Shown: piece by piece, positions 358 through 61,014 of the stretch
Numbering within the stretch: the stretch's first letter is position 1
Layout of the letters: each line of letters opens with the position of its first letter
Source: Candidatus Nomurabacteria bacterium
GTDB lineage: Bacteria; Patescibacteriota; Minisyncoccia; Phycocordibacterales; UBA9973
Length of the DNA stretch: 64,000 bases
Reading direction: 5' to 3'
Assembly: GCA_031425235.1 (NCBI GenBank)
Contig: JANPIZ010000008.1
Location: 91,377-155,376 of the forward strand
Position numbers and translations under genes: made by a program
The notes under the pieces: generated by a model
What the model was told of the DNA's origin: nothing
Seen by the model: the letters and a program-made list of their open reading frames with translations, nothing else
The model's database searches: none

Positions 358-358
358 C

Positions 359-430
359 CCAGTACTAAAATTTTAAGTTTATATTAATATCGACTCTTGT
401 CCGTAATCAAAAATTTAGTACGGGACAAGT
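359..430 (-). repeat. Copy 1 (reverse orientation) of a ~70-bp TIR-bearing upstream cassette; abuts the yerC-like start codon
   Basis: About 85-90% identical to 10677-10745 and 21602-21673. Terminal inverted repeats are GTACTAAA(A)TTTT ... AAAATTTTAGTAC, with an internal cccgta/tacggg hairpin. Confidence 0.75.
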
Positions 431-443
431 ACAGCTACTTTAT

Positions 444-473
444 CAAACTAAAGTACTTTAGTCAAGTAAAGTA
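444..473. repeat. Copy 1 of a 29-nt motif containing the perfect palindrome CTAAAGTACTTTAG
   Basis: caaACTAAAGTACTTTAGTCAAGTAAAGTA is repeated almost exactly at 6337-6365. Confidence 0.7.
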
Positions 474-587
474 TAAAAATCGCTGTGGAAAACTTTACTT
501 AGGTAAAGTAGGTAATTAAAGCTTTATTTAAATAAAATAAAAAGTCAGCATTCTTGTTTTGAATTACTGACTTTTTTGATAATTTAT

Positions 588-2394: not shown

Positions 2395-4914
2395 TTAGTC
2401 TTTCAAAAACTTTTCAATAATCTTTCCATCTCTTTTTAACCATTCGACATTACCTTCGAGTCTTTCGAGAAGTTGATCTATTGCTCTTTTTGCTCCTGGA
2501 GCTTCGTGGGTCTTGAAGAATTTTTTAATTGAAGTAAGGTGTTTTTCTTCAGCGCTGCCACCTATGGCTTTTACAGCCCGGCCAAGAGTGAGTCCACCTT
2601 CACCGTACCGGATCACTAAAGTCTTCCAATTCTTCTGCAAGAAATTCCACCAGATGTCTCTTCCCTGTGGATTTGATCCGACACTTGATAGGATGCTGAC
2701 GGTGTCTTGAGTGCGGACGTGCTCGGACATTGCAAACTCACAGGCTTTTTGCAAAAGTTCCTTATCTTTGAAATCACCCAAAGCACCGCCTAGGCGATTT
2801 TTTTCTTCATGTAAAGTTTCAGTTTTGTATTTTTTTATAAATTCTTCAAATTCTTTTTTACCTCCAGCCGAAGCGACGACTCCATATACCGCTCCCCGAA
2901 TGTCTGGATTTAAATTACTTGCTCGTCCTTTGGCGTGGTTACTCTTCAATTTCTTTCGTGCCTCATCTATCACTTTCTTGTCGCCAGCTCGGCCGAGGCG
3001 AGAAATAGTGAGCGAGCGGAGAAGGGTGTCAGCATGCGATTCATTTTCCTTAGCATTCCAGCCTAGTCGTTTAAAAATAGGGGAGAAAAGTTCTAGTGTA
3101 AGATTGTCTAAATTATCATTATGCTTTAATAGTTGCTCGATACGCGCCAGCCCCATAGCTATCTCTACACATACAGTGTAATTATCTTCTTCCGTGTAAG
3201 CTCGTAAAAATTCCAAAGCATCCGTGGTTGGTATTATTCCTGCTTCTGACAATGCAAACAAGTCACGAATAATGCCGAGTCTGTCGCGAGGTGAAAGTGT
3301 TCTATTTAAAACTGGCTCGACTAATTTTTCTAAAAGTTCTTTGGAGTAAGCAGTTCTATAAAATCCAGCTTCGCCATAGTTTACCTTGTTATTTTTGTAA
3401 GTTATCGGCATTTCCCATTTAGTATTGTCTCTTGTTTTTTTTGCCGAGACTGGGCTTGATAAGAACCTACTTTGCGAGAAATTTATCTTGCCGTTTTTCA
3501 TTTCTGCTTTGATGACAGGGTAGCCTGGTTTGCTCGTCCAGTTGTGCATCATCCGAGCAACTGGTTTTTTGGACACTTTTTCAAATGCCTGCCAGAGGTG
3601 AAGTGTTTTAGTATTTTTATAGCTGTGTTTTTTAAGATAATACCGCAACCCATCACGGAAATCTTTTTCACCGAGATATTCAGCAAGCATGCGGATGACT
3701 GATGCACCTTTGGAATATGAAACTTCATCAAATATTTCTCCGATCTCGCTTGGGTGATGCACTTCGACTTCAATTGGGTGCGTTGTTGCGAGCGCATCAA
3801 GTCGTAATGCGACTCCGAGGTCATTTGTAGAAAACTGTGTCCATATATCCCATTTTGGGAACATTTTATCTACGGCAAGGTATTCTATATATGAAGCAAA
3901 CCCTTCGTTCAGCCATAAGTGCGTCCACCATTCCATGGTGACCAGATTCCCAAACCATTGATGAGCAAGCTCGTGAGCGACGACCAGTGCTACCCATTGC
4001 TTGTTTGAAGCCGAAGAATGCTCTTCATCCACGAGTAGGGCACTTTCCCGATAGGTTACTGCACCCCAGTTTTCCATAGCTCCAGAAGCAAAGTCCGGGA
4101 TAGCTATCATGTCGAGTACTGGGAGCGGATATTTTATATCAAAATAGCTTTCGTAAAATTCTAAAGTTTTCACAGCACACTCGAGAGCAAACTTAGCCTG
4201 GTGTTTTTTGCCTGGAGTGGTATATACTCGTACGCGAGTTTTATTCTTGGTTTTCTTTTCAAGATATTCAAAATCTCCAATTATAAAAGCGAGGAGATAT
4301 GTCGACATTTTTGGAGTTGGTGCAAATTTTACAATTTTAAATCCTGATTCGTGTTCCCCGCCTGCATCAGCTATGCTGAAAGCATTGCGGGCAGGTTCGA
4401 CACTTGTGGGAAGAGTATTTGATATAGCAGTTTTATCGTCTGGTACGATAAGTGAAACATTAAAAATTGCTTTATGAGCTGGCTCATCAAAACATGGGAA
4501 TGCCCGCCTTGCATCTGTGGCTTCAAATTGCGTGGTCGCCATGTTATGTTCTTTGTCTATATTGATATATTTACTTCTGTAAAAGCCGCGCATTTTGTCG
4601 TTGAGAATTCCAGTGAACACCAACGTGAGTTTTGCCCTGCCTTTTTTAATAGGTTTCGAAAAAGCGAAGGTGGCTGTTTCGTTTTTTGTATTGTACGAAA
4701 TTTTCGCAAATACTTTCTCTTTACCTATTAGCACACTTGCTGTATCTATTTCTATCTCTTTTGAATGCAGGGTGATGGTTTTTGTATCTTTTGAAAGAGA
4801 TATAGTGATAGTTTCAAGTCCTCGAAAGGTAAAGTTTTCAAGGTCCGGTCGAAGCTGAATGTCGTATTCAAGTGGGATGACCTCTTTCGAGAGGCGAATA
4901 TTTTTATTTTTCAT
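2395..4914 (-). CDS. pepN: M1-family aminopeptidase N
   Basis: HELAHQWFGNLVTMEWW...LNEGFASY (HEXXH-X18-E zinc motif) and GAMEN-type exopeptidase motif (GAMENWG); 839 aa. Confidence 0.9.
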   Translation of the reverse strand: MKNKNIRLSKEVIPLEYDIQLRPDLENFTFRGLETITISLSKDTKTITLHSKEIEIDTASVLIGKEKVFAKISYNTKNETATFAFSKPIKKGRAKLTLVFTGILNDKMRGFYRSKYINIDKEHNMATTQFEATDARRAFPCFDEPAHKAIFNVSLIVPDDKTAISNTLPTSVEPARNAFSIADAGGEHESGFKIVKFAPTPKMSTYLLAFIIGDFEYLEKKTKNKTRVRVYTTPGKKHQAKFALECAVKTLEFYESYFDIKYPLPVLDMIAIPDFASGAMENWGAVTYRESALLVDEEHSSASNKQWVALVVAHELAHQWFGNLVTMEWWTHLWLNEGFASYIEYLAVDKMFPKWDIWTQFSTNDLGVALRLDALATTHPIEVEVHHPSEIGEIFDEVSYSKGASVIRMLAEYLGEKDFRDGLRYYLKKHSYKNTKTLHLWQAFEKVSKKPVARMMHNWTSKPGYPVIKAEMKNGKINFSQSRFLSSPVSAKKTRDNTKWEMPITYKNNKVNYGEAGFYRTAYSKELLEKLVEPVLNRTLSPRDRLGIIRDLFALSEAGIIPTTDALEFLRAYTEEDNYTVCVEIAMGLARIEQLLKHNDNLDNLTLELFSPIFKRLGWNAKENESHADTLLRSLTISRLGRAGDKKVIDEARKKLKSNHAKGRASNLNPDIRGAVYGVVASAGGKKEFEEFIKKYKTETLHEEKNRLGGALGDFKDKELLQKACEFAMSEHVRTQDTVSILSSVGSNPQGRDIWWNFLQKNWKTLVIRYGEGGLTLGRAVKAIGGSAEEKHLTSIKKFFKTHEAPGAKRAIDQLLERLEGNVEWLKRDGKIIEKFLKD

Positions 4915-6325: not shown

Positions 6326-6336
6326 CTGACTTTATT

Positions 6337-6365
6337 CAACTAAAGTACTTTAGTCAAGTAAAGTA
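6337..6365. repeat. Copy 2 of the CTAAAGTACTTTAG-containing motif; abuts the start codon of Cys-rich paralogue 1
   Basis: Identical 27-nt core to 444-473. It ends 4 nt before the ATG at 6370. Confidence 0.7.
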
Positions 6366-6369
6366 AAAA

Positions 6370-8076
6370 ATGAAACAAGAAAGTGAAACAAAATCGTGCC
6401 AGAATTGCAAACAAGACTTTACTATCGAGCCGGACGATTTTGGATTTTATGAAAAAATAAAAGTACCTCTGCCAACTTTTTGCTCAGAATGCCGCAGGCA
6501 AAGAAGGCTTGCATGGAAGAATACATACAACTTATACAACAATTCTTGTAGTCTTTGTGGTAAAAACATTATTTCAATATATTCCCCTGATTCCTCTTTA
6601 ATTATTTACTGTGTTAGCTGTTTTTGGAGTGATAAATGGGATGCATATCAATACGGGCAAGATTTTGACCCTAATAGGTCTTTTTTTGAACAGTATATAG
6701 ATCTTAATAAAAAGGTACCAAAAATAGCTTTAATGAATGATGATGGTATTGCAAGTGTAAATAGTGCTTATTGTCACGATGTTGCTTTTTCGAAAAATTG
6801 CTACATGGTATTTATTTCCTGGAAACTTGAAAATGTGATGTATTCAGGAATGTTAAACAAGGGTCGCGAAATATGCGATTGCCTTTGCATGCAAGATTTT
6901 TGTGAGTATATGTACGAGTCAATGTTTGTAGATGAATGTTATAAATGCAGATATGTGACGTATGGTAGCATGCTACAAAATTGCGATTTTTGTTATGATT
7001 GTCGTGAGTGCAGTGATTGCTTTATGAGCTTTGGCTTGCGTAATAAAAAATATTTTTATAAGAACAAACAGTATTCCAAAGAAGAATACGAAAAAATTCT
7101 TAAATCTTATCAATTGCATACACGAACGGGTTGGGAAAGAGCCAAAAATGAATATAAAGAATTTATAATAACTTATCCTCGTCGTTTTGCTATGATAAGG
7201 AATTCAGTTAACTGTACGGGAGATGACCTTATAAGATGTAAAAACACGAGAGATTCCTTTTTTGCTCCCTTTAGTGAAGACTCTCGCTTTGTTGCAGGAG
7301 GGGTTAATTTTAAGAATTGTTATGATTTGTCTGGTGGAGGGGAAGTAGAGTATAGTTATGAATCTATCACGCCCGATCAATCATATAATAATTTTTTTAG
7401 TATCTATTCTTGGAAAAATAAAGAAATAGCTTATTGTGATAATTGTCATTCGTCTAATAACCTTTTTGGTTGTGCAAGCTTGAAAAAAGGTGAATACTCA
7501 ATATTAAATAAGAAATATTCAAAAGAAGATTATTTTAAATTAAAAGAAAAAATAATAATAAAAATGAAACATGATGGGGAATGGGGAGAATTTTTTCCAG
7601 TTCGATATTCATATTTTGGATATAATGAAACTGAAGCTTTTGATATGAATATTTTATCAAAACATGAAGCTGAAAATTTAAACTATAAATGGCGAGATAA
7701 TTTACAAAGAACTATTGGACAAGAAACTATCTCTCAAAAGGAAATACCAGATTCTATTTTTGATACAACTGAGTATATTTTATATGAAATTTTAAAATGT
7801 GAATCTTGCTCTCGAAATTATAAAGTTACGAACGACGAGCTGGTGTTTTACAAAAGAATGAATGTACCTATTCCAAAAATTTGCTTTTTCTGTAGAAATA
7901 AAAATCGCTTAAATACTAGAAATCCGTTTAAGCTTTGGCATCGCTCATGTATGTGTACTGTCAAGAATCACTTTCATGGAGAAAATAATTGTAAAATAGA
8001 ATTTGAAACTTCCTATGCCCCTGATCGGCCGGAGATGGTATATTGTGAAAAATGTTATCAAGCTGAAGTTTACTAG
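6370..8076 (+). CDS. Large cysteine-rich protein, paralogue 1 (unrecognised family; terminal zinc-ribbon-like motifs plus internally duplicated Cys-repeat core)
   Basis: 568 aa. N-terminal CQNCKQDF...FYEKIKVPLPTFCSECRRQRRL...C..C is repeated near the C-terminus (FYKRMNVPIPKICFFCRNKNRL...C.C). N-K-K-Y-S-K-E-E/D-Y occurs twice. The protein aligns end to end at roughly 40% identity with the ORF at 47848-49554. Confidence 0.8.
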   Translation: MKQESETKSCQNCKQDFTIEPDDFGFYEKIKVPLPTFCSECRRQRRLAWKNTYNLYNNSCSLCGKNIISIYSPDSSLIIYCVSCFWSDKWDAYQYGQDFDPNRSFFEQYIDLNKKVPKIALMNDDGIASVNSAYCHDVAFSKNCYMVFISWKLENVMYSGMLNKGREICDCLCMQDFCEYMYESMFVDECYKCRYVTYGSMLQNCDFCYDCRECSDCFMSFGLRNKKYFYKNKQYSKEEYEKILKSYQLHTRTGWERAKNEYKEFIITYPRRFAMIRNSVNCTGDDLIRCKNTRDSFFAPFSEDSRFVAGGVNFKNCYDLSGGGEVEYSYESITPDQSYNNFFSIYSWKNKEIAYCDNCHSSNNLFGCASLKKGEYSILNKKYSKEDYFKLKEKIIIKMKHDGEWGEFFPVRYSYFGYNETEAFDMNILSKHEAENLNYKWRDNLQRTIGQETISQKEIPDSIFDTTEYILYEILKCESCSRNYKVTNDELVFYKRMNVPIPKICFFCRNKNRLNTRNPFKLWHRSCMCTVKNHFHGENNCKIEFETSYAPDRPEMVYCEKCYQAEVY

Positions 8077-10667: not shown

Positions 10668-10676
10668 TAAAAATAT

Positions 10677-10745
10677 TTGTCCCGTACTAAATTTTTGATT
10701 ACGGGGTATAATGATAAATATTAATATTTAAAATTTTAGTACTGG
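10677..10745 (+). repeat. Copy 2 of the ~70-bp TIR-bearing upstream cassette; abuts the protease start codon
   Basis: ttgtcccgtactaaatttttgattacgggg...aaaattttagtactgg followed directly by the ATG at 10747. Confidence 0.75.
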
Positions 10746-10746
10746 C

Positions 10747-12810: not shown

Positions 12811-12934
12811 ATTTCAACCTCCTTTTCCTTATTAATTTTACCACAAACTCAAAAGGAATAGTTTTCAAAGGATAGTTGAAAAAAGCCTTTTAATATTTAA
12901 TATTTTGAGCCTCAGGTTTCCCGTGACGACGTGA

Positions 12935-13021
12935 TTGACAAATCAGTGTTTTTGTGATATACTATAAGAGTATGACTGGATTTAATTTTTTAATTCCAGA
13001 TCTCTTCGTTGAAAATAAAAT
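12935..13021 (+). promoter_or_regulatory. Promoter (TTGACA-N17-TATACT) plus conserved 5' leader, copy 1
   Basis: 100% identical over ~75 nt to 32085-32160. Contains the ctgga...tccag hairpin. Confidence 0.65.
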
Positions 13022-13024
13022 AAT

Positions 13025-13828
13025 ATGAAAATTTTGCAAAACAAAAAAGTCCGCTTTGCGGCAATTTTATTGGTTGCGTTGTTGGCAGCGTTGTCAACTC
13101 TTAATGCACAACCTGCGGAAGCAGTCACAGCCGAATTCGGCAACTACTTTGAAAGTGTTAAAAAGCTTAACCCCACGGTTAAGAATTTTCACACAATGAA
13201 CGTCGGCGAGGTCTATGGTTTGCCGGACGGCAAAACTGACCACCTCGAAGAAGGCGACACCGAAGGAATTTGGGGTCGCGAGCTGAGAAAATGGAATCAA
13301 CTTCGTTTGGATCCGGTGACCTCAGGTCAACCGTATGTAAACGGCGGAATTAGTCCCGATAACCCGGAACAGCTTGAACGTCAATTTGACAATCAAGCGC
13401 GATTTATGTCTGGGGGTCGTCAGTTTCCTGAACGCATCAGTCCCATTCAAAAAGGGAAAATTTTCGGCGAAGGACTCGTCGGCTATTTAGACCAAGGTTT
13501 TCAACCTCGTAAAATTGATGAGCCGGGCGTACCGGCATATCAGGCGACCTACAGATTCGCCAACGGGGAAGAAATTACCCTTCAATCTTTGATGGGTTGC
13601 ATGAACCCGATCGAAGAAGGTATTGGTCAAACGCGTAAAGGTTACACTTTCGTGCCGGACGGACAAAATCCGGATGTTGTTCCGCTCACGGTAGCGGACA
13701 ATAACGACAAGGGTAAAGACAAGGATTTCAATGGGAATTATATTCTCGGAGGATTTTTGTTTGCTTGTTTATTCGTTCGCCAACCCCCGTCGAAAGACCG
13801 GAAAAAATTACTATTTCTTTTGGTGTAG
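13025..13828 (+). CDS. secreted hypothetical protein (signal peptide), anomalously GC-rich
   Basis: N-terminus KKVRFAAILLVALLAALSTLNAQPAEA. Body is visibly GC-richer than surrounding genes. A possible C-terminal extension by frameshift is described in the findings. Confidence 0.6.
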   Translation: MKILQNKKVRFAAILLVALLAALSTLNAQPAEAVTAEFGNYFESVKKLNPTVKNFHTMNVGEVYGLPDGKTDHLEEGDTEGIWGRELRKWNQLRLDPVTSGQPYVNGGISPDNPEQLERQFDNQARFMSGGRQFPERISPIQKGKIFGEGLVGYLDQGFQPRKIDEPGVPAYQATYRFANGEEITLQSLMGCMNPIEEGIGQTRKGYTFVPDGQNPDVVPLTVADNNDKGKDKDFNGNYILGGFLFACLFVRQPPSKDRKKLLFLLV

Positions 13829-21592: not shown

Positions 21593-21601
21593 AAAATAAT
21601 A

Positions 21602-21673
21602 CTTGTCCCGTACTAAATTTTTGATTACGGGGCATAAAAATAAACATTATTAATTTAAAATTTTAGTACCGGG
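21602..21673 (+). repeat. Copy 3 of the ~70-bp TIR-bearing cassette, inside the operon and abutting the ABC ATPase start codon
   Basis: cttgtcccgtactaaatttttgattacgggg...ttaaaattttagtaccggg followed directly by the ATG at 21674. Confidence 0.75.
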
Positions 21674-22828: not shown

Positions 22829-24254
22829 ATATTACTACACAATTGGACTAGAAATACACGCAGAGCTAAAAACTTTGACGAAGATGTTTTGTGGGTGTAA
22901 GAATGACCCAGATGAAACTAAACCAAATGTAAATATTTGCCCGGTGTGTATGGCTCATCCAGGTGCTCTTCCGGTAATAAATAAAAAGGCTATAGAACAA
23001 GTAATAAAAGTTGGCCTTGCTGTCGATGCAAAGATTGCTGACTTTTCAGAATTTGATCGTAAAAACTATTTCTATCCAGATATTCCAAAGGGCTACCAGA
23101 TTTCACAATATAAATATCCAATAGTTTCTGGCGGCCATTTGGCTGATATGGACATCACCCGTATTCACCTCGAGGAAGATACTGCGAACAATAAACACCG
23201 CGGAGAAATATCACTTATCGATTTCAATCGTGCCGGAGTGCCGCTTATGGAGCTCGTAACTGAGCCGCATACATTTGAGTCAGCGGAAGAAGCTGCTAAA
23301 ACAGCGAGTAATTTTGCCAAAGAATATCAACTCATTTTATGGTACCTCGGAGCTTCGGAAGCAAATATGGAAAAAGGCGAGATGCGTGTAGAAGCTAATG
23401 TATCTGTGTCTCCAGATAAAGACAAAAAATGGACAAATTATGTAGAGGTGAAAAACCTAAATTCTTTTAAAAGTGTCGAGCGAGCTATCAAATTTGAGGT
23501 AGAACGCATGACAGCTTTGTGGAATGAAGGTAAAGAGAATGAAATAATAAAAGAGACGAGAGGTTTCGACGAAAGTAAACAAAAAACATTTTCACAGCGC
23601 TCAAAAGAAAACGCTGAGGATTATAGGTATTTCCCTGATCCAGATTTACCGAAACTCAAGCTTTACGAAGCTTTTGATATAGAAAAAATGAAAGCTGAAT
23701 TACCAGAATTACCAGTAGCTAAACGCGCTCGTTATAAAAATGATTTCGGAATTAAAGATGAGGATATAGAAATATATATAAATGACCTTGAAATAGGCTA
23801 TTGGTTTGAGAGTATTGCAAAATTATTAGGTGAAAAGGATAAAGTAAAAATTGCATCGAATTACATAACTTCAGATTTCTTAGGTCTCAAAAAGACCAAC
23901 TTGGCGACCAGGTCGCCAAGTGCGGAAAATTTCACTGAGTTGATAAATTTAGTTTCAGAAAATAAATTATCTTCACGAAGCGCAAAAGATATTCTTGCTA
24001 TGATAGTCATAAACGATGAATCACCATTACAAATAGCTACAGAAAAGAATTTACTTCAGAGTAATGATGAAGGTGCACTAAAAGAAATTGTCCAAAAAAT
24101 AATTGATGAAAATCCTGAGCCAGTGGCTTCGTATAAATCAGGTAAGGAAAATGCTATTATGTCACTCGTCGGGAAAATAATAAAAGCTTCCAATGGTGCT
24201 GCAAACCCTCAAGTGGTTATCAAACTTCTCAAAGAAATGCTCGCCTCGTCGTAG
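22821..24254 (+). CDS. gatB: Asp/Glu-tRNA amidotransferase subunit B
   Basis: Full-length GatB with the C-terminal YqeY-like domain. Contains the 23-bp palindromic insert at 23899-23921. Confidence 0.9.
   Translation: MNKYYYTIGLEIHAELKTLTKMFCGCKNDPDETKPNVNICPVCMAHPGALPVINKKAIEQVIKVGLAVDAKIADFSEFDRKNYFYPDIPKGYQISQYKYPIVSGGHLADMDITRIHLEEDTANNKHRGEISLIDFNRAGVPLMELVTEPHTFESAEEAAKTASNFAKEYQLILWYLGASEANMEKGEMRVEANVSVSPDKDKKWTNYVEVKNLNSFKSVERAIKFEVERMTALWNEGKENEIIKETRGFDESKQKTFSQRSKENAEDYRYFPDPDLPKLKLYEAFDIEKMKAELPELPVAKRARYKNDFGIKDEDIEIYINDLEIGYWFESIAKLLGEKDKVKIASNYITSDFLGLKKTNLATRSPSAENFTELINLVSENKLSSRSAKDILAMIVINDESPLQIATEKNLLQSNDEGALKEIVQKIIDENPEPVASYKSGKENAIMSLVGKIIKASNGAANPQVVIKLLKEMLASS
23899..23921. 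repeat. 23-bp perfect palindrome inserted in frame in gatB
   Basis: acttggcgaccaggtcgccaagt encodes NLATRSPSA. The identical sequence occurs in topA at 59851-59873. Confidence 0.85.
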
Positions 24255-32030: not shown

Positions 32031-32072
32031 TACTCCAAACATTTATTTATATATGTAAAATGGTTACAGTGT

Positions 32073-32160
32073 TTGACAAAACACTGTTTTTGTGATATAC
32101 TATAAGAGTATGACTGGATTTAATTTTTTAATTCCAGATCTCTTCGTTGAAAATAAAATT
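32073..32160 (+). promoter_or_regulatory. Promoter (TTGACA-N17-TATACT) plus conserved 5' leader, copy 2
   Basis: Identical to 12947-13021. Confidence 0.65.
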
Positions 32161-32649
32161 ATGAAAAATAAAAAAGTGAGCCTGCTTCGAACGGCACTTT
32201 TTACGTTTTTGTTCCTGGTTACGTTATTGGGGTCAATAACAAAAACGTCGGCACAAGTAACCTCAACTGCTACCTATAAAGTTGAGATACAAAAATTTAC
32301 TGTCGGAAGCTTATTCCCGAAAGCGCTCATCACGTTTTCGGAAAAAATTGCAGATCGGGAGGAATATTTTCGGTCTACAACAGCGAGTTTCGCTATAAAG
32401 TCCAAAGACGCTTCGCCTTTAATGGCGAAGTTGCAACAACAGGCGGTCGAAACCCCGTCACAAGGGATTTTGAACAAATTTTCCTTTTATATCAAAGATG
32501 ATGTAATGGAAATCCATTTTATTTTGAGAAATGAATTCACTGATTGTGAATTCATCGAAAAAATCGAAAAAATCATCGAAACGATAAAAGAAGAAAAATT
32601 TAAAAATAAAGTTCTGAAAAGAACATCGCTGACGTTCACGCAAAAATAA
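32161..32649 (+). CDS. secreted hypothetical protein (signal peptide homologous to that of the 13025 gene)
   Basis: MKNKKVSLLRTALFTFLFLVTLLGSITKTSAQV. The track ORF starts upstream at 32092, but the leader is shared, so ATG 32161 is preferred. Confidence 0.55.
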   Translation: MKNKKVSLLRTALFTFLFLVTLLGSITKTSAQVTSTATYKVEIQKFTVGSLFPKALITFSEKIADREEYFRSTTASFAIKSKDASPLMAKLQQQAVETPSQGILNKFSFYIKDDVMEIHFILRNEFTDCEFIEKIEKIIETIKEEKFKNKVLKRTSLTFTQK

Positions 32650-33815: not shown

Positions 33816-34709
33816 ATGGCATCAACAGAAGGAGTATCACACGAAATAACCTTATTTGCAGAACCAGTTGCCCATATTGGAAATTTTAATGTAACCAATG
33901 CTCTTCTTTCATCCTGGGCTGTTGTTATAATCATAATTATTTTATCTATAATTATTCGTAAAACTTTACGTGAAGTTCCAAGTAAAGTGCAAAATATTTT
34001 TGAAATTATTATCGAAGGCGCACTCGATCTCTGTGATCAAGTTACAAACAATAGAAATATTTCAATTCAAATCTTTCCTATCGCTATATCTGTTTTCTTT
34101 TTTATACTACTCAATAATTGGCTTGGGTTATTACCCCTTGGAGGGGTTGGCCTTATTGAAAAAGGGGAACATGGACTTGCTTTTATACCGTTCTTGCGCG
34201 GAGGTACGGCTGATATTAATACCACGATCGCCCTCGCAGTTATGGCTGTAATAGGCGCAAATGTCTTTGGGGTGTTTTCTGTCGGGCTCTGGAAAACTTT
34301 CAATAAATATGTTAATCTGAAGGCACTCGGAGGTATTTTTACCAAAATACGTAAAGATCCAACGGTTATTATCGTAGCTCCGATAACGTTCTTTGTAGGT
34401 TTAATTGAAATTGTGGGTGAATTTGCAAAGGTTGCATCGCTTTCATTTCGTCTTTTTGGAAATGTATTTGCAGGGGAAGTACTTCTGGCATCCATGGCAG
34501 CATTGATTGCGTATATTATACCGGTACCCTTCCTTTTCTTGGAAATTCTCGTAGGAGTAATTCAAGCACTTATCTTCTCAATGCTTTTAGTTGTGTATTT
34601 TACAATCGGAGCCACTGATCACGATAGCCACGACGAAGAGCACGAGAAAGGTCACGCTGTTGCACCTGCCCGAAATGCTACGCATAACGTTGCAGGCGGA
34701 CATGCATAA
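33816..34709 (+). CDS. atpB: F0F1 ATP synthase subunit a (with His-rich C-terminal tail)
   Basis: RLFGNVFAGEV with the essential Arg. The tail reads TDHDSHDEEHEKGHA... Confidence 0.9.
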   Translation: MASTEGVSHEITLFAEPVAHIGNFNVTNALLSSWAVVIIIIILSIIIRKTLREVPSKVQNIFEIIIEGALDLCDQVTNNRNISIQIFPIAISVFFFILLNNWLGLLPLGGVGLIEKGEHGLAFIPFLRGGTADINTTIALAVMAVIGANVFGVFSVGLWKTFNKYVNLKALGGIFTKIRKDPTVIIVAPITFFVGLIEIVGEFAKVASLSFRLFGNVFAGEVLLASMAALIAYIIPVPFLFLEILVGVIQALIFSMLLVVYFTIGATDHDSHDEEHEKGHAVAPARNATHNVAGGHA

Positions 34710-34760
34710 GTACAGTTCCGTTTTGCATATAAAATTTTGTATGTAAAACGGAACTGTACT
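34709..34760 (+). promoter_or_regulatory. 21-bp near-perfect RNA hairpin between atpB and atpE
   Basis: agtacagttccgttttgcata / tatgtaaaacggaactgtact (one G-U pair), 10-nt loop, followed by TTTT. Confidence 0.7.
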
Positions 34761-34790
34761 TTTAAAATAAGTAAAGGTCATTATTATTAA

Positions 34791-35051
<261 letters not shown>

Positions 35052-35138
35052 GTCTACACTAACATCTTGAGTTCTAGTTCTGGGTTCTAGTTTACCGACT
35101 AGTACCTAGTGCCTAGTACCTAAGATATAATAAACAAT

Positions 35139-35600
35139 ATGGAATCAATCATTTCAACATTTCACATAGACTGGAAAATAATTATTGCTCAAGCTGTAAA
35201 CTTCGCGATAGTATTTGTCGTGTTATATATCTATGCTTTAAAACCGCTTTCAAAATTAATGTCTGAAAGATCGGCGAAAATATCTCAAGGTATTACAGAC
35301 GCAAAAACGAACGCTGAGGTATTAAGTAAGACTCAAGAAGAATACGATGCAATACTTGCAAAAGCTCGCGTTGAAGCTCAGAAAATTTTTGATGATGTCA
35401 AAAAAGAAGGTGAAGCGAAGAAAAACGAAATGCTCGAACAGTCACGACAAGAAGTAGCTGTTATGATAGACAATGGTAAGAAAAATCTCGAAGCTGAAAA
35501 AGCAAAAATAATGGAAGATGCTAAAAAAGAAATCATAAGCCTTGCAATGATGGCAACAGAAAAATTAATTAGCACCAAAGGTAATGTAAATAATTTATAA
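35139..35600 (+). CDS. atpF: F0F1 ATP synthase subunit b
   Basis: N-terminal TM plus a long charged helix. Confidence 0.85.
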   Translation: MESIISTFHIDWKIIIAQAVNFAIVFVVLYIYALKPLSKLMSERSAKISQGITDAKTNAEVLSKTQEEYDAILAKARVEAQKIFDDVKKEGEAKKNEMLEQSRQEVAVMIDNGKKNLEAEKAKIMEDAKKEIISLAMMATEKLISTKGNVNNL

Positions 35601-47847: not shown

Positions 47848-49554
47848 ATGACAAGTGAAACAAAAAATTGTCAAAATTGTAAAACAGATTTTGTAATAGA
47901 ATCTGGAGACTTTAACTTTTATGAAAAAATAAAAGTTCCACCGCCGACCTTTTGTCCGAACTGTAGACTTACGCGTAGATTTCTCCATTCAAATGAAATG
48001 GTGTTATACAAACGTAAATGCGACCTGACTCAAAAAGATATTTTTAGCATGTATCCACCTAAAACACTTTTTCCTGTCTATGAGACATCGGAGTGGTATT
48101 CTGACAAATGGGATGCATATGAATATGGGATGGATTTCGATGAGACCAGACCCTTTTTAGAGCAATTTTTAGAGCTCCAAAATAAAGTACCGCGTATGGC
48201 TCTGACACAACAAGGTCAAACAATTAATAGTGCGTATACTCATAGAGTATCTTATCCAAAAAACTCATACATGGCTTTTCGAGCTTCTTATCCAGAGGAT
48301 TGTTTGTATGTGTATAACGCCAAGTACACTCGAAATTGCGCTGACTCAATATGGATTTTTGACTCAGATCTTTGTTATGAATGTATAAATGTAGAAAATT
48401 GTTACAACTTAAAATATAGTCAAGAATGCAAAGATTCCCGTGATTCCAGCTTTTTATACAGTTGTAAAAACACCTCAAATTCAACTTTATGTGTTAATTT
48501 AGTCAACGCAGAGTGCTGTATTTGGAATAAAAAATATACAAAAGAAGAGTACGTCAAAAAATTAGCAAACATGGGACTCAATAAATTTTCTAACGTTGAG
48601 AAGCTAAAGAAAGAGTTTGAAGAGTTTAGAAAGAAATTTCCACAAAGAGCTGTGGCTTCATTAAAATCTGAGCAAGTGTCTGGTAACTGGTTTTCGGGTT
48701 GCAAAAATGTTCATGAATCATTTGATTGCGTCAATGTAAAAGATGGCAAATATTTATTCATGGTTTTCAATGCCGAAGATTGTATGGATTTTTTCGAATG
48801 GGGCAACAAAGCCGAGCAAATCTATGAGACAACTAATGCTGGTCTCAATGTTGCCAGATTATACTTTTGCTTTCAGTGTTGGATGGGAGCAACAGATCTG
48901 TATTACTGCAACACATGTCCTGGTGCACGAAACTGCTTTGGTTGCGTGGGTCTAAAGAAAGGCGAATACTCTATTCTAAACAAGAAGTATTCGAAAGAAG
49001 AATATGAAATTTTAAAAGAAAAAATTATTAAGCATATGCAAAAAATGCCTTTTATAAGTAATACTGGTATTGAATATAAATTTGGGGAATTTTTTCCTCC
49101 AGAATTTTCAGATCATGCTTATAATGAAACCATCGCAAATTATTATTTTCCACTTTCACAAGAGGAAGCTTTGTCTCGCGGTTATAAATGGAAAGACAAG
49201 GAAAAAGTAGTCCACCAGACGACAGTCAAAGCTAAGGATCTGCCAGACACAATAGAAGAAGTAACTGACGCCATACTCAATGAAATCATAGAGTGCGGAG
49301 AAAAAGATAATCCAGAATCAGTTGGAGCGTTTCGCATAACTCCAAATGAGCTCAATTTTTATAGGAAAATGAATATTCCACTACCGAGAGTATGCTTTAG
49401 CATCAGACACTTGCGCCGGATGGACAGGAGACCAAAACTAAACATTTTTAAGAGAAAATGTGATAAGTGTAGTGTTGAAGTTGAAACAGTATATACTAAA
49501 GAGCATGCACCGGTATTGTATTGTGAAAAATGTTATCAACAAGAAGTTTACTAA
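47848..49554 (+). CDS. Large cysteine-rich protein, paralogue 2
   Basis: 568 aa with the same architecture as 6370-8076. Identical C-terminus YCEKCYQ.EVY. Conserved LKKGEYSILNKKYSKEEY block. Confidence 0.8.
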   Translation: MTSETKNCQNCKTDFVIESGDFNFYEKIKVPPPTFCPNCRLTRRFLHSNEMVLYKRKCDLTQKDIFSMYPPKTLFPVYETSEWYSDKWDAYEYGMDFDETRPFLEQFLELQNKVPRMALTQQGQTINSAYTHRVSYPKNSYMAFRASYPEDCLYVYNAKYTRNCADSIWIFDSDLCYECINVENCYNLKYSQECKDSRDSSFLYSCKNTSNSTLCVNLVNAECCIWNKKYTKEEYVKKLANMGLNKFSNVEKLKKEFEEFRKKFPQRAVASLKSEQVSGNWFSGCKNVHESFDCVNVKDGKYLFMVFNAEDCMDFFEWGNKAEQIYETTNAGLNVARLYFCFQCWMGATDLYYCNTCPGARNCFGCVGLKKGEYSILNKKYSKEEYEILKEKIIKHMQKMPFISNTGIEYKFGEFFPPEFSDHAYNETIANYYFPLSQEEALSRGYKWKDKEKVVHQTTVKAKDLPDTIEEVTDAILNEIIECGEKDNPESVGAFRITPNELNFYRKMNIPLPRVCFSIRHLRRMDRRPKLNIFKRKCDKCSVEVETVYTKEHAPVLYCEKCYQQEVY

Positions 49555-58725: not shown

Positions 58726-61014
58726 CTATGCTATCTTATTTAATTTATGAGGGTTGTGCATTTTACATGCCTTATTACTACAACGCTCAGGAATTGTTTT
58801 CGTGCCTTCCATCATTAAACTACTGCATTCTTTACATATATTGCCGGTAGGTTTAGCTTTTATCGCAAACTTACATTTTGGATAGTTAGAGCAAGAGTAG
58901 AAAACACCAAATCTTCCACGTCTCTCTGAAATATCTCCAGTTTTACACTCTGGACACATTACTCCAGTTCGCTTTTTAGCTTCATCAGCCTCATCGCTTT
59001 TTACATATTTACATTTTGGGTACCTTGAACATGAAATAAATGTTCCTGAGCCATCTCTGCGTTCACGTACTACTAATTTACCACCCATATCTTTTTTTCT
59101 TTTACCTTCGGCTTCAGCCAAAGCTACTGCAGGCGAAGAACACTGTGGGCATGGTTCGCCAGTTTCCTTTGGGCCTTGTAGTTGAGTACCGTCGAGCATT
59201 AGTGCTCCATCACAATCAGGATATTTTGAACACGAATAAAATTTACCCACACGCGCGAGTTTGATGATCATCTCACTACCGCATTTGGGACACTTCATAT
59301 TTTCTGGAGCATCGCCCAGATTTGTCGCCTTATCGAGTTTGTCTTTTGCTTTCACTTCTTTCAAAAATGGTCCGTAGAAATCTTTGAGAGTTTTTTCATA
59401 CTCACGTTCCCCACGTGAAATTTCATCCAGTTCATCTTCCATCTCGGCAGTGAATGTATCAGAAATATAATTTGCAAAATGTGCTTCAAGAAAATCAGAC
59501 ACGACTTCGCCCGTATCGGTAGGGAATAACGTCTTGCCTTCTTTGTGGACATAGCCTCTGTCTTCAATTGTTCGCATAATAGATGCATACGTAGAAGGCC
59601 GACCAATACCTCGGTTTTCAAGTTCTTTCACAAGTCCCGCTTCGCTATAACGCCCTGGTGGTTCGGTAAATTTTTCTTCGCTTATCAAATTTAGTAATTT
59701 TAACTTTTCTCCAACTTTACATAGTGGTAACTCGACATCGTCACCTCGTGCACCGGTATCTACCTTGAGCCATCCAGGAAAAAGAAGTCGTGAACCTTTT
59801 GCATTAAAGTCTGTAATATCCTTGTCCTTGGCGCCCTGGTCGCCATGTGCACTTGGCGACCAGGTCGCCAAGTTAGCCAAATTTGCGGTAATTTTTGTTT
59901 TGAGTAACTTTGCATCGGTCATTTGTGAGGAAATAGCCCGCTCCCAAATGAGTCGATACAGTTTTTGTTGTTCGTCCGTGCCTGCATGCAACTTCTCTAT
60001 ATGTGTCGGTCGTATTGCTTCGTGTGCTTCTTGGGCATTTTTAGATTTTGTTTTATATGTCCTTTTTTCAGCATACTCGGTACCGTATTCTTTTTTTACA
60101 AAAGATAAAATCTGATCTTGGGCTGCCACAGATAAATTCGTACTGTCTGTACGCATATAGCTAATATGTCCAGCCTCATACAACTTCTGTGCAAGCTGCA
60201 TTGTACGCGAAGGAGAATAGCCAAGGCGAGAACTCGCTGTCTGTTGAAGTGTTGAAGTCGTAAATGGTGCCCGTGGTGAACGTTTTTGTTCTGATTCTTT
60301 TACGCCTAAAATGCTCCAAGTACCCGCTTTACCTGCTTCCATTATTTTTTCCACCAGCTTTTCATCTCGTGGTTCTTCACTGCATTCTAATGTTAGCTTG
60401 TCACCTTTGGCTGTATCAAAAAGTCCTCGTATTCTCCAATATTTCTCTGGAATAAAAGCACGGATTTCTCGCTCCCGCTCCATAATTATCCGAAGTGCAG
60501 GGGATTGAACCCGGCCTGCCGAAAGTCCGTAACGCACTTTTTTCCATATGAGCCCTGAAAGGTCGTAGCCCACGAGTCGATCGAGCACTCTGCGTGCTTC
60601 CTGAGCTTTACGTAGATGTGTATCTATTTTACGTGGATGCTTGAGTGCTTCTTCTACTGCGGCCTTAGTGATTTCATGGAAAGCTACGCGTTCAATTGGC
60701 GCTTTGATTTTTTTGTCTTGTTTTAAAAGCTCTTCGATGTGCCAGGCTATTGCTTCACCTTCGCGGTCGGGGTCAGTCGCGAGCAGTATATCAGTAGCTT
60801 TTTTTGCGAGTTCCTGCAATTCGTGTACTACTTTTTCTTTGCCTTTTGAGATTTCATAATGAGGAATAAATCCACCTTCGATATCGATAGCTGCCTTATT
60901 TGATTTTGGTAAGTCACGAATGTGTCCGACAGACGCACGAACAGTAAAAGCGCCTTCGAGATATTTCTCGATTGTTTTCGCTTTTGATGGTGACTCAACA
61001 ATTAATAATTTCAT
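58726..61014 (-). CDS. topA: DNA topoisomerase I with C-terminal zinc ribbons
   Basis: MKLLIVESPSKAKTI Toprim N-terminus, catalytic-Tyr region and multiple Cys4 ribbons. The ATG at 61012-61014 is preferred over the track's upstream start. Confidence 0.9.
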   Translation of the reverse strand: MKLLIVESPSKAKTIEKYLEGAFTVRASVGHIRDLPKSNKAAIDIEGGFIPHYEISKGKEKVVHELQELAKKATDILLATDPDREGEAIAWHIEELLKQDKKIKAPIERVAFHEITKAAVEEALKHPRKIDTHLRKAQEARRVLDRLVGYDLSGLIWKKVRYGLSAGRVQSPALRIIMEREREIRAFIPEKYWRIRGLFDTAKGDKLTLECSEEPRDEKLVEKIMEAGKAGTWSILGVKESEQKRSPRAPFTTSTLQQTASSRLGYSPSRTMQLAQKLYEAGHISYMRTDSTNLSVAAQDQILSFVKKEYGTEYAEKRTYKTKSKNAQEAHEAIRPTHIEKLHAGTDEQQKLYRLIWERAISSQMTDAKLLKTKITANLANLATWSPSAHGDQGAKDKDITDFNAKGSRLLFPGWLKVDTGARGDDVELPLCKVGEKLKLLNLISEEKFTEPPGRYSEAGLVKELENRGIGRPSTYASIMRTIEDRGYVHKEGKTLFPTDTGEVVSDFLEAHFANYISDTFTAEMEDELDEISRGEREYEKTLKDFYGPFLKEVKAKDKLDKATNLGDAPENMKCPKCGSEMIIKLARVGKFYSCSKYPDCDGALMLDGTQLQGPKETGEPCPQCSSPAVALAEAEGKRKKDMGGKLVVRERRDGSGTFISCSRYPKCKYVKSDEADEAKKRTGVMCPECKTGDISERRGRFGVFYSCSNYPKCKFAIKAKPTGNICKECSSLMMEGTKTIPERCSNKACKMHNPHKLNKIA
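59851..59873. repeat. 23-bp perfect palindrome inserted in frame in topA, with a degenerate tandem copy at 59826-59847
   Basis: acttggcgaccaggtcgccaagt encodes NLATWSPSA. The adjacent ccttggcgccctggtcgccatg encodes HGDQGAKD. Confidence 0.85.

Follow-up and report, generated by a model that had tools for sequence, protein, structure and literature searches.

Why does a 14-bp palindrome occur twice, in nearly the same sequence context, upstream of a gene for a TrpR-family regulator and again directly before a gene for a large cysteine-rich protein? We examined this in a 64,000-nucleotide stretch of a Candidatus Nomurabacteria genome (contig JANPIZ010000008.1), referred to here as the window. 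The palindrome, CTAAAGTACTTTAG, is exact at 448-461 and at 6340-6353, as a first-pass annotation had reported, and has no other exact copy in the whole window. We consider it probable that each copy of the repeat represents two 18-bp operators of the HisR/YerC type set end to end, one pair lying on the promoter of the regulator gene itself and the other before the Cys-rich gene, and that the same repressor serves both. The regulator gene, which is yerC/hisR-like, is on the minus strand at 1-357, with its ATG at 357 and the C-terminus of its product cut by the start of the window. The Cys-rich ORF, a putative second member of the regulon, encodes 568 aa on the plus strand at 6370-8076 and has no Shine-Dalgarno-like word before it.

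The palindrome proved to be part of a larger design. The longest identical run between the two copies is AACTAAAGTACTTTAGTCAAGTAAAGTA, at 446-473 and 6338-6365; an identical core is thus indeed present at both places, at 28 nt rather than the 27 nt first given, and it does end 4 nt before the Cys-rich ATG at 6370, as had been stated. Ungapped similarity extends over 42 nt, 39 of them shared (93%; 437-478 against 6329-6370). The repeated unit is an 18-bp inverted repeat, ACTTTA-N6-TAAAGT. Each copy consists of two such units placed end to end, and CTAAAGTACTTTAG is the junction between them. Upstream of yerC, the proximal unit (ACTTTAGTTTGATAAAGT, 437-454) and the distal unit (ACTTTACTTGACTAAAGT, 455-472), both read on the minus strand, are exact matches, and the distal one is near-invariant in orthologous loci. 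A third exact unit, ACTTTACTTAGGTAAAGT, overlooked in the first-pass annotation, lies at 492-509, 37 nt start-to-start from the distal unit. In the second copy, units A (ACTTTATTCAACTAAAGT, 6329-6346) and B (ACTTTAGTCAAGTAAAGT, 6347-6364) are again exact, with B ending 5 nt before the ATG.

Five exact units stand in the window against 0.02 expected, and none of 100 shuffled sequences reached five. All are intergenic and confined to two intergenic regions, three upstream of the yerC-like gene and two before the Cys-rich ORF. Allowing one mismatch adds no further site in the window, and units with two mismatches occur there at chance level (12 against 8.7 expected). This arrangement changes how the symmetry is to be read. 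The GTAC that had been taken for the centre of a TrpR-type operator is the inter-unit junction, while the symmetry centre of the operator is the N6. Two further resemblances proposed at first pass did not hold either. Kinship with the inverted repeats of a neighbouring cassette of about 70 bp (GTACTAAA...TTTAGTAC) is superficial, as the cassette contains no HisR-type site and its sole two-mismatch match is no more than chance would give. The CTAGTAC words before an atpF-like gene were likewise rejected as HisR-type sites; they belong to a local 7-nt tandem repeat confined to this one place in the window, and the region has no HisR-type site.

That tandem repeat (35066-35123; GTTCTAG, then CTAGTNC, at least three copies each) precedes a TATAAT and the atpF-like gene, whose ATG is at 35139. 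The window has other repeats as well. A 94-nt direct repeat, 96% identical between 12931-13024 and 32069-32162, carries TTGACA-N17-TATACT and a common leader; one copy ends at the ATG of the gene at 13025 and the other overlaps the annotated start of the ORF at 32092. A near-perfect palindrome of 27+27 nt (34708-34761), directly after the gene at 33816-34709, is probably a terminator, as is the GC-rich palindrome AACTTGGCGACCAGGTCGCCAAGT at 23898-23923 and 59849-59874.

Both the operator and the protein point to HisR. YerC of Bacillus subtilis is HisR, a histidine repressor of the TrpR family (Ashniev et al. 2022, PMC9413887). The consensus of its operator in Firmicutes, Actinobacteria and Synergistetes is cacTTTAnnnnnnTAAAgtg, and the Ruminococcus gnavus protein binds CAGTTTAGTATAGTAAAGT in vitro only when L-histidine is present; in 183 genomes of that study, a HisR site lies upstream of the regulator's own gene (PMC9413887). 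The unit in the window matches this published consensus. The window's yerC-like protein matches PF01371 (1.5e-17) and passes the yecD_yerC model TIGR02531, with 63.2 bits against a cutoff of 42.2, and it fails the TrpR equivalog model TIGR01321 (19.3 bits against 67.25). Its PDB matches are 3FRW, 3G1C and 3KOR, at 1e-10 to 1e-12, and its best relatives are of the HisR type. The recognition-helix pattern T-G-x-S-x-x-T-I-x-R is kept in YerC proteins of the candidate phyla radiation (CPR). At the DNA-contact residues (Tyr, Ala/Thr, Thr, Arg), the CPR consensus is Y..(I)..TGLSSTTIARIS against Y......TGASTATISRVN in HisR, such that in the recognition helix Tyr, Thr and Arg are kept, Ala is replaced by Thr and Ser by Ala.

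How would such a pair of operators act? Read on the minus strand, each copy contains TTGACT-N17-TAAAGT, to which the copy at yerC adds a TG before the -10. Scans for -35 and -10 elements place TTGACT at 465-460, inside the distal unit, and an extended -10 inside the proximal unit (TG at 445-444, TAAAGT at 442-437), all on the minus strand; the yerC tandem thus overlaps TTGACT-N17-TGnTAAAGT, with a predicted transcription start at A430. The first copy had been assigned to the yerC leader; given the strand of the gene, it falls in the promoter region, 80-115 nt upstream of the ATG. We propose a model where two repressor dimers on the abutting units would cover the -35 and -10 of yerC and occlude RNA polymerase, amounting to classical autorepression. 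The distal unit would cover the -35 (TTGACT), and the proximal unit would itself supply the extended -10 (TGnTAAAGT). The third unit and a DnaA-box-like word (TTTTCCACA, 484-492, minus strand), which abuts it, lie just upstream of the tandem.

An inverted repeat of this length might also work as RNA, whether as a terminator or as a stability or translation element, and the 36-mer does fold as RNA at about -10 kcal/mol (z -2.4 to -2.9). We give almost no credence to this possibility. The hairpin stems are AU-only and lack a U-tract, a terminator scan found nothing at either copy, and an Rfam scan of the whole window returned only four tRNAs. Further, the element lies upstream of the predicted yerC start, and the N6 words of the two units are neither complementary nor covarying. 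A pair of DNA operators on the promoter is the reading that we follow here.

Conservation was assessed in two ways, one starting from the protein and one from the motif. For the first, which is the unbiased test, similarity to the window YerC (62-85% identity) was the sole criterion in choosing 80 metagenomic loci, 79 of them with upstream sequence. The 36-bp tandem, with at most two mismatches in its 24 specified positions, precedes yerC in 71 of the 79 (no mismatch in 57, one in 11, two in 3), and the other 8 have a variant layout, their units being separated by an insertion. In these protein-selected loci the 36-mer is almost invariant and its flanks are unconserved, the consensus being AAGTTATCCACAcccc-N8-ACTTTACTTGACTAAAGTACTTTAGTTTGCTAAAGTAG-N4-ATGAGTAAAGGAATGAAT. 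The N6 words double as promoter elements: the -35 TTGACT arises from a distal N6 of CTTGAC or GTTGAC, and the proximal N6, through its final TGc or TGa, makes the following TAAAGT an extended -10. The proposal that the YerC/TrpR-like protein regulates its own gene through the motif has therefore gained considerably. With conservation on this scale, and with an operator identical in type to one that is published and experimentally bound, we regard autoregulation of yerC through this operator as strongly supported on comparative grounds.

Could the 36-mer be nothing more than a strong core promoter, with no dedicated repressor and its palindromy incidental? TTGACT-17-TGnTAAAGT is a good sigma-70 match, and leaderless promoters are common in the window genome. 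Yet 18 near-invariant positions of the 36-mer fall outside the polymerase-contact hexamers. Those conserved beyond what sigma-70 needs are the outer ACTTTA and the spacer AAAGTACTTTAG, which are operator half-sites. Isolated single units elsewhere lack promoter words, and their N6 consensus is the symmetric GTTAAC, giving the full consensus ACTTTAGTTAACTAAAGT. Other promoters in the window do not carry the motif, and the motif is of the site type bound by HisR in experiments (PMC9413887). A mere promoter is thus very unlikely.

A related question is whether some other regulator occupies these sites, with yerC merely one of its targets. Here the DnaA-box-like word deserves mention: 61 of 69 yerC loci (for example L122-L160) have TTATCCACA, with at most one mismatch, 11-12 nt from the tandem on its upstream side, the consensus at yerC loci being TTATCCACA or TTTTCCACA, often AAGTTATCCACAcccc, and its conservation suggests that other factors act at the yerC promoter. 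As for the operators themselves, the motif is the one known for this regulator family from other phyla, in vitro work included, and it co-occurs with yerC in every sampled lineage (Paceibacterota, Nomurabacteria, Saccharibacteria, Doudnabacteria, Levybacteria, Gracilibacteria, SR1 and Eubacteriales). We judge control by a different regulator to be a shade less probable even than a bare promoter, and continue with YerC as the predicted binding protein. A replication origin or DnaA-box cluster around yerC was also considered and rejected, since the box there is isolated, boxes in the window occur at chance frequency and no skew switch is found at yerC.

The position of the start codon adds a second feature to the promoter. 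In the protein-selected loci the first ATG follows the proximal unit by 6 nt in 42 loci, 7 nt in 16, 9 nt in 8, and 78-79 nt in the 3 loci that carry a cassette. By standard promoter geometry, an ATG 6-7 nt after the -10 means a leaderless mRNA, which implies that the yerC transcript is leaderless in most relatives. More widely, a Shine-Dalgarno-like word precedes only 5 of 55 long ORFs of the window, and in 20 of 55 genes the start codon follows 6-8 nt behind the end of a -10-like TAnnnT hexamer, often with TGn, where any other offset accounts for about 2. Leaderless mRNAs thus appear to be the dominant design in the window genome.

The window's own yerC departs from its relatives in this respect. 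Comparison with orthologues shows a 73-nt cassette at 358-430 (minus strand), between the promoter spacer AGCTGT and the yerC ATG; the orthologue L098 reads TAAAGTagctgtATGAGTAAAGG, and the window has the same sequence plus the cassette between AGCTGT and ATG. Inserted at what would otherwise be a leaderless start, the cassette would give the window's yerC a leader that most orthologues lack. The same element is also found in the window at 10669-10746 and 21595-21673, both on the plus strand, and in other loci (L053:3723, L055:1446, L058:874, L154:1634 and L206:605). Its 5' core, TTGTCCCGTACTAAATTTTTGATTACGG, is invariant, its 3' end, TTAAAATTTTAGTACYGGG, is in every case directly followed by an ATG, and the two ends pair as RNA (-17.9 kcal/mol, z -3.0). 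Genes behind it in several genomes include yerC, a Trypsin_2 peptidase gene, an ABC ATPase gene and Cys-rich paralogues, and the cassette could be a portable 5' leader or regulatory element.

The motif-first scan, which took one genome per species and sought two units 0-30 nt apart, gave at least 120 loci. Among the loci listed, at least 42 are abutting matches (gap 0), almost all in Patescibacteria, namely Paceibacterota, Nomurabacteria, Saccharibacteria and Doudnabacteria; spaced pairs beside yerC are found, again among the loci listed, in Levybacteria, Gracilibacteria, SR1 and Absconditicoccaceae. A phmmer search with the window YerC identified at least 53 yerC-like ORFs among the at least 120 loci, nearly all directly beside the site pair, and the ATG typically lies 6 nt from the proximal unit. 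The three-unit layout of the window (18 + 37/38 nt) recurs in L072, L084, L090 and L095.

The sites also reach other genes. In gut Clostridia and Coriobacteriia, among the loci listed, spaced pairs precede genes for SBP-type ABC lipoproteins, in keeping with the histidine transporters known from the published regulon. A conserved gene for an EamA/DMT transporter fused to a riboflavin-kinase-like C-terminal domain, found about 0.5-1 kb downstream of yerC in four metagenomic loci (L140:3865-5130, L147, L148 and L152:3467-4753), has a single HisR-type unit 23-35 nt before it, and pyrF stands behind HisR-type sites in L017 and L069. Genes of the Cys-rich family have sites directly upstream in five other genomes, as a tandem in L015, L055, L067 and L096 and as a single unit in L098; among the loci listed, they account for about 4 of about 12 tandem matches that are not at yerC. 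One Nomurabacteria genome (L015 and L058) has a tandem at yerC and a tandem at a Cys-rich gene, which is the pattern of the window.

The Cys-rich protein belongs to a family of more than 6300 homologues. All of them come from Patescibacteria and are annotated as hypothetical, with members in the window at 6370-8076 and 47848-49554 and in L055, L208 and L209. Each protein has zinc-ribbon-like CxxC pairs at its N- and C-termini, and a locus can hold up to 6-8 tandem paralogues. The window protein has no Pfam or NCBIfam match, and its AF2 model (pLDDT 78, pTM 0.81) has no Foldseek match in the PDB. Other words also stand before these genes. In L208, ccggtatcaatGTACTAGTACatgagt lies upstream of three Cys-rich paralogues (genes at 4236, 6001 and 12094), about 8-9 nt before the annotated ATG; this word, which the window lacks, includes a 10-bp palindrome resembling a TrpR-type half-site pair. 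Another Cys-rich paralogue, in L209 (start 4269), has four tandem AACTTTATCCACAG boxes before it.

Whether the Cys-rich gene of the window belongs to the regulon is a more delicate matter. Copy 2 occupies the spacer that separates the scpB stop (6325) from the Cys-rich ORF and could be a passenger. It would then be an inverted duplicate in the spacer, inert for the Cys-rich gene or serving only to drive or repress an antisense transcript into scpB, and only yerC would be regulated. Several findings lend themselves to this. The 39 of 42 nt shared by the copies include the promoter-specific N6 words, inverted relative to the target gene, and the -35 and -10 words of copy 2 (TTGACT-N17-TAAAGT, 6357-6329, minus strand) face away from the Cys-rich gene toward scpB; in the direction of the Cys-rich gene, the only -35 is a weak TCAACT. 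In eight loci chosen by similarity to the Cys-rich protein, no HisR-type site lies upstream of the orthologues, and three of these eight are syntenic scpB-Cys-rich junctions without a site: L207, L208 and L211 (closest orthologue, 72%). On the shared and inverted N6 words and the empty orthologous loci, we read copy 2 as the probable product of a recent inverted duplication of the yerC operator and promoter.

A duplicate may still regulate. The sites before Cys-rich genes in the five other genomes are independent, with different N6 words. In the window, the TAAAGT at 6359-6364, 5 nt before the ATG, is a -10-like hexamer whose geometry fits the leaderless pattern of the genome, so that the Cys-rich gene can use the leaderless design too. 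The terminal TAAAGT of copy 2 could serve as the -10 of a leaderless Cys-rich promoter, placing the gene under the same repressor, and a repressor bound 5 nt from the ATG would in either case block initiation or read-through from scpAB. With these points in mind, we consider a passenger role for copy 2 unlikely, and the shared repressor our working model. Control of the Cys-rich gene is plausible in the window genome and is not conserved at orthologous positions, since the empty sites at the eight loci make membership of the regulon lineage-specific.

Conservation in orthologous promoters, which the first-pass annotation had named as a check on its regulon, is thus divided, being borne out at yerC and not at the eight Cys-rich loci. 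The proposed place of the Cys-rich gene in the regulon stands in so far as family genes carry sites in the five other genomes, and not as a fixed property of its orthologues. As judged from these comparisons, recruitment of the operator to the Cys-rich family is recurrent but lineage-specific.

What the repressor senses is of particular interest. In the HisR helix that has been proposed to contact histidine (PMC9413887), two acidic residues are replaced by invariant Arg in the CPR proteins (FFED to FLRD; DF to RF), with several other acidic residues kept. These two changes mean that the effector may differ from histidine. It could be histidine, as in Firmicutes HisR, or another ligand; histidine is possible, not assured. 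Patescibacteria generally lack histidine biosynthesis, and extending the HisR regulon to such a phylum itself raises the question of the signal. In the window, no gene for histidine biosynthesis or uptake lies beside a site; the sites precede only yerC and the Cys-rich ORF.

To our knowledge, very little is known of transcriptional regulation in Patescibacteria/CPR. The locus described here belongs to a familiar type of switch, HisR/YerC, not previously described in this phylum, with a distinctive tandem layout on a leaderless promoter and with targets other than his genes. Patescibacteria are not covered by the published HisR study (PMC9413887), and our literature search found no paper linking HisR/YerC operators to them. 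What is gained is a regulator with a precisely defined putative operator, a promoter architecture (-35, extended -10, leaderless ATG) and a first regulon list. The Cys-rich family, very large at more than 6300 homologues and lacking a known domain or fold, also gains a regulatory connection.

It is tempting to go further and suppose that the YerC module has been rewired in Patescibacteria. A near-universal and almost invariant 36-bp cassette, at once operator and leaderless promoter, would provide self-control, and its operators would have been recruited repeatedly and independently to the multi-copy, CPR-specific Cys-rich family, the EamA/riboflavin-kinase fusion and pyrF. The charge-reversed ligand helix suggests that the rewired module would answer to a different small-molecule signal, possibly one derived from the host. 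We hold this broader picture only tentatively, as a possibility that we would not favor at present. If true, this would be among the earliest transcriptional regulons that can be defined in these uncultured epibionts, and it would offer a way into the function of the Cys-rich proteins.

The arrangement at yerC recalls three known systems to different degrees. In phage lambda, the cI gene transcribed from PRM is a leaderless, self-repressed repressor gene, whose operators overlap its own promoter and whose mRNA starts at the AUG. The likeness lies in operators that overlap the repressor's own promoter, the leaderless start here being predicted from geometry only; the protein families are unrelated, and in the window the 73-nt cassette adds a leader.

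TrpR of Escherichia coli is closer, as it belongs to the same protein family and both operators are palindromes of 18-20 bp. Several TrpR dimers bind side by side, and trpR is autoregulated. The centre T-n-G-T-n-n-A-C-n-A (TAGTTAACTA) is common to the CPR consensus ACTTTAGTTAACTAAAGT and the TrpR motif TGTAcTnGTnnACnAgTACA, whereas the outer half-site bases are ACTTT here and GTACT in TrpR. The TrpR operator TGTACTnGTnnACnAGTACA does not describe the window sites, which share its centre alone and differ in the outer bases, and GTACTAGTAC is absent from the window.

The closest parallel is HisR itself. The subfamily is the same (PF01371; TIGR02531, YerC/YecD), the operator cACTTTA-N6-TAAAGTg is the same, and in both cases a site lies before the regulator's own gene. 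Against this shared ground, the CPR system differs in its layout, with paired units that abut at an 18-bp register and cover both the -35 and the -10 of a leaderless gene, and in its presumed ligand helix, where two acidic residues have become Arg. It differs also in its targets, which are a Cys-rich protein, an EamA/riboflavin-kinase fusion and pyrF in place of the his genes.
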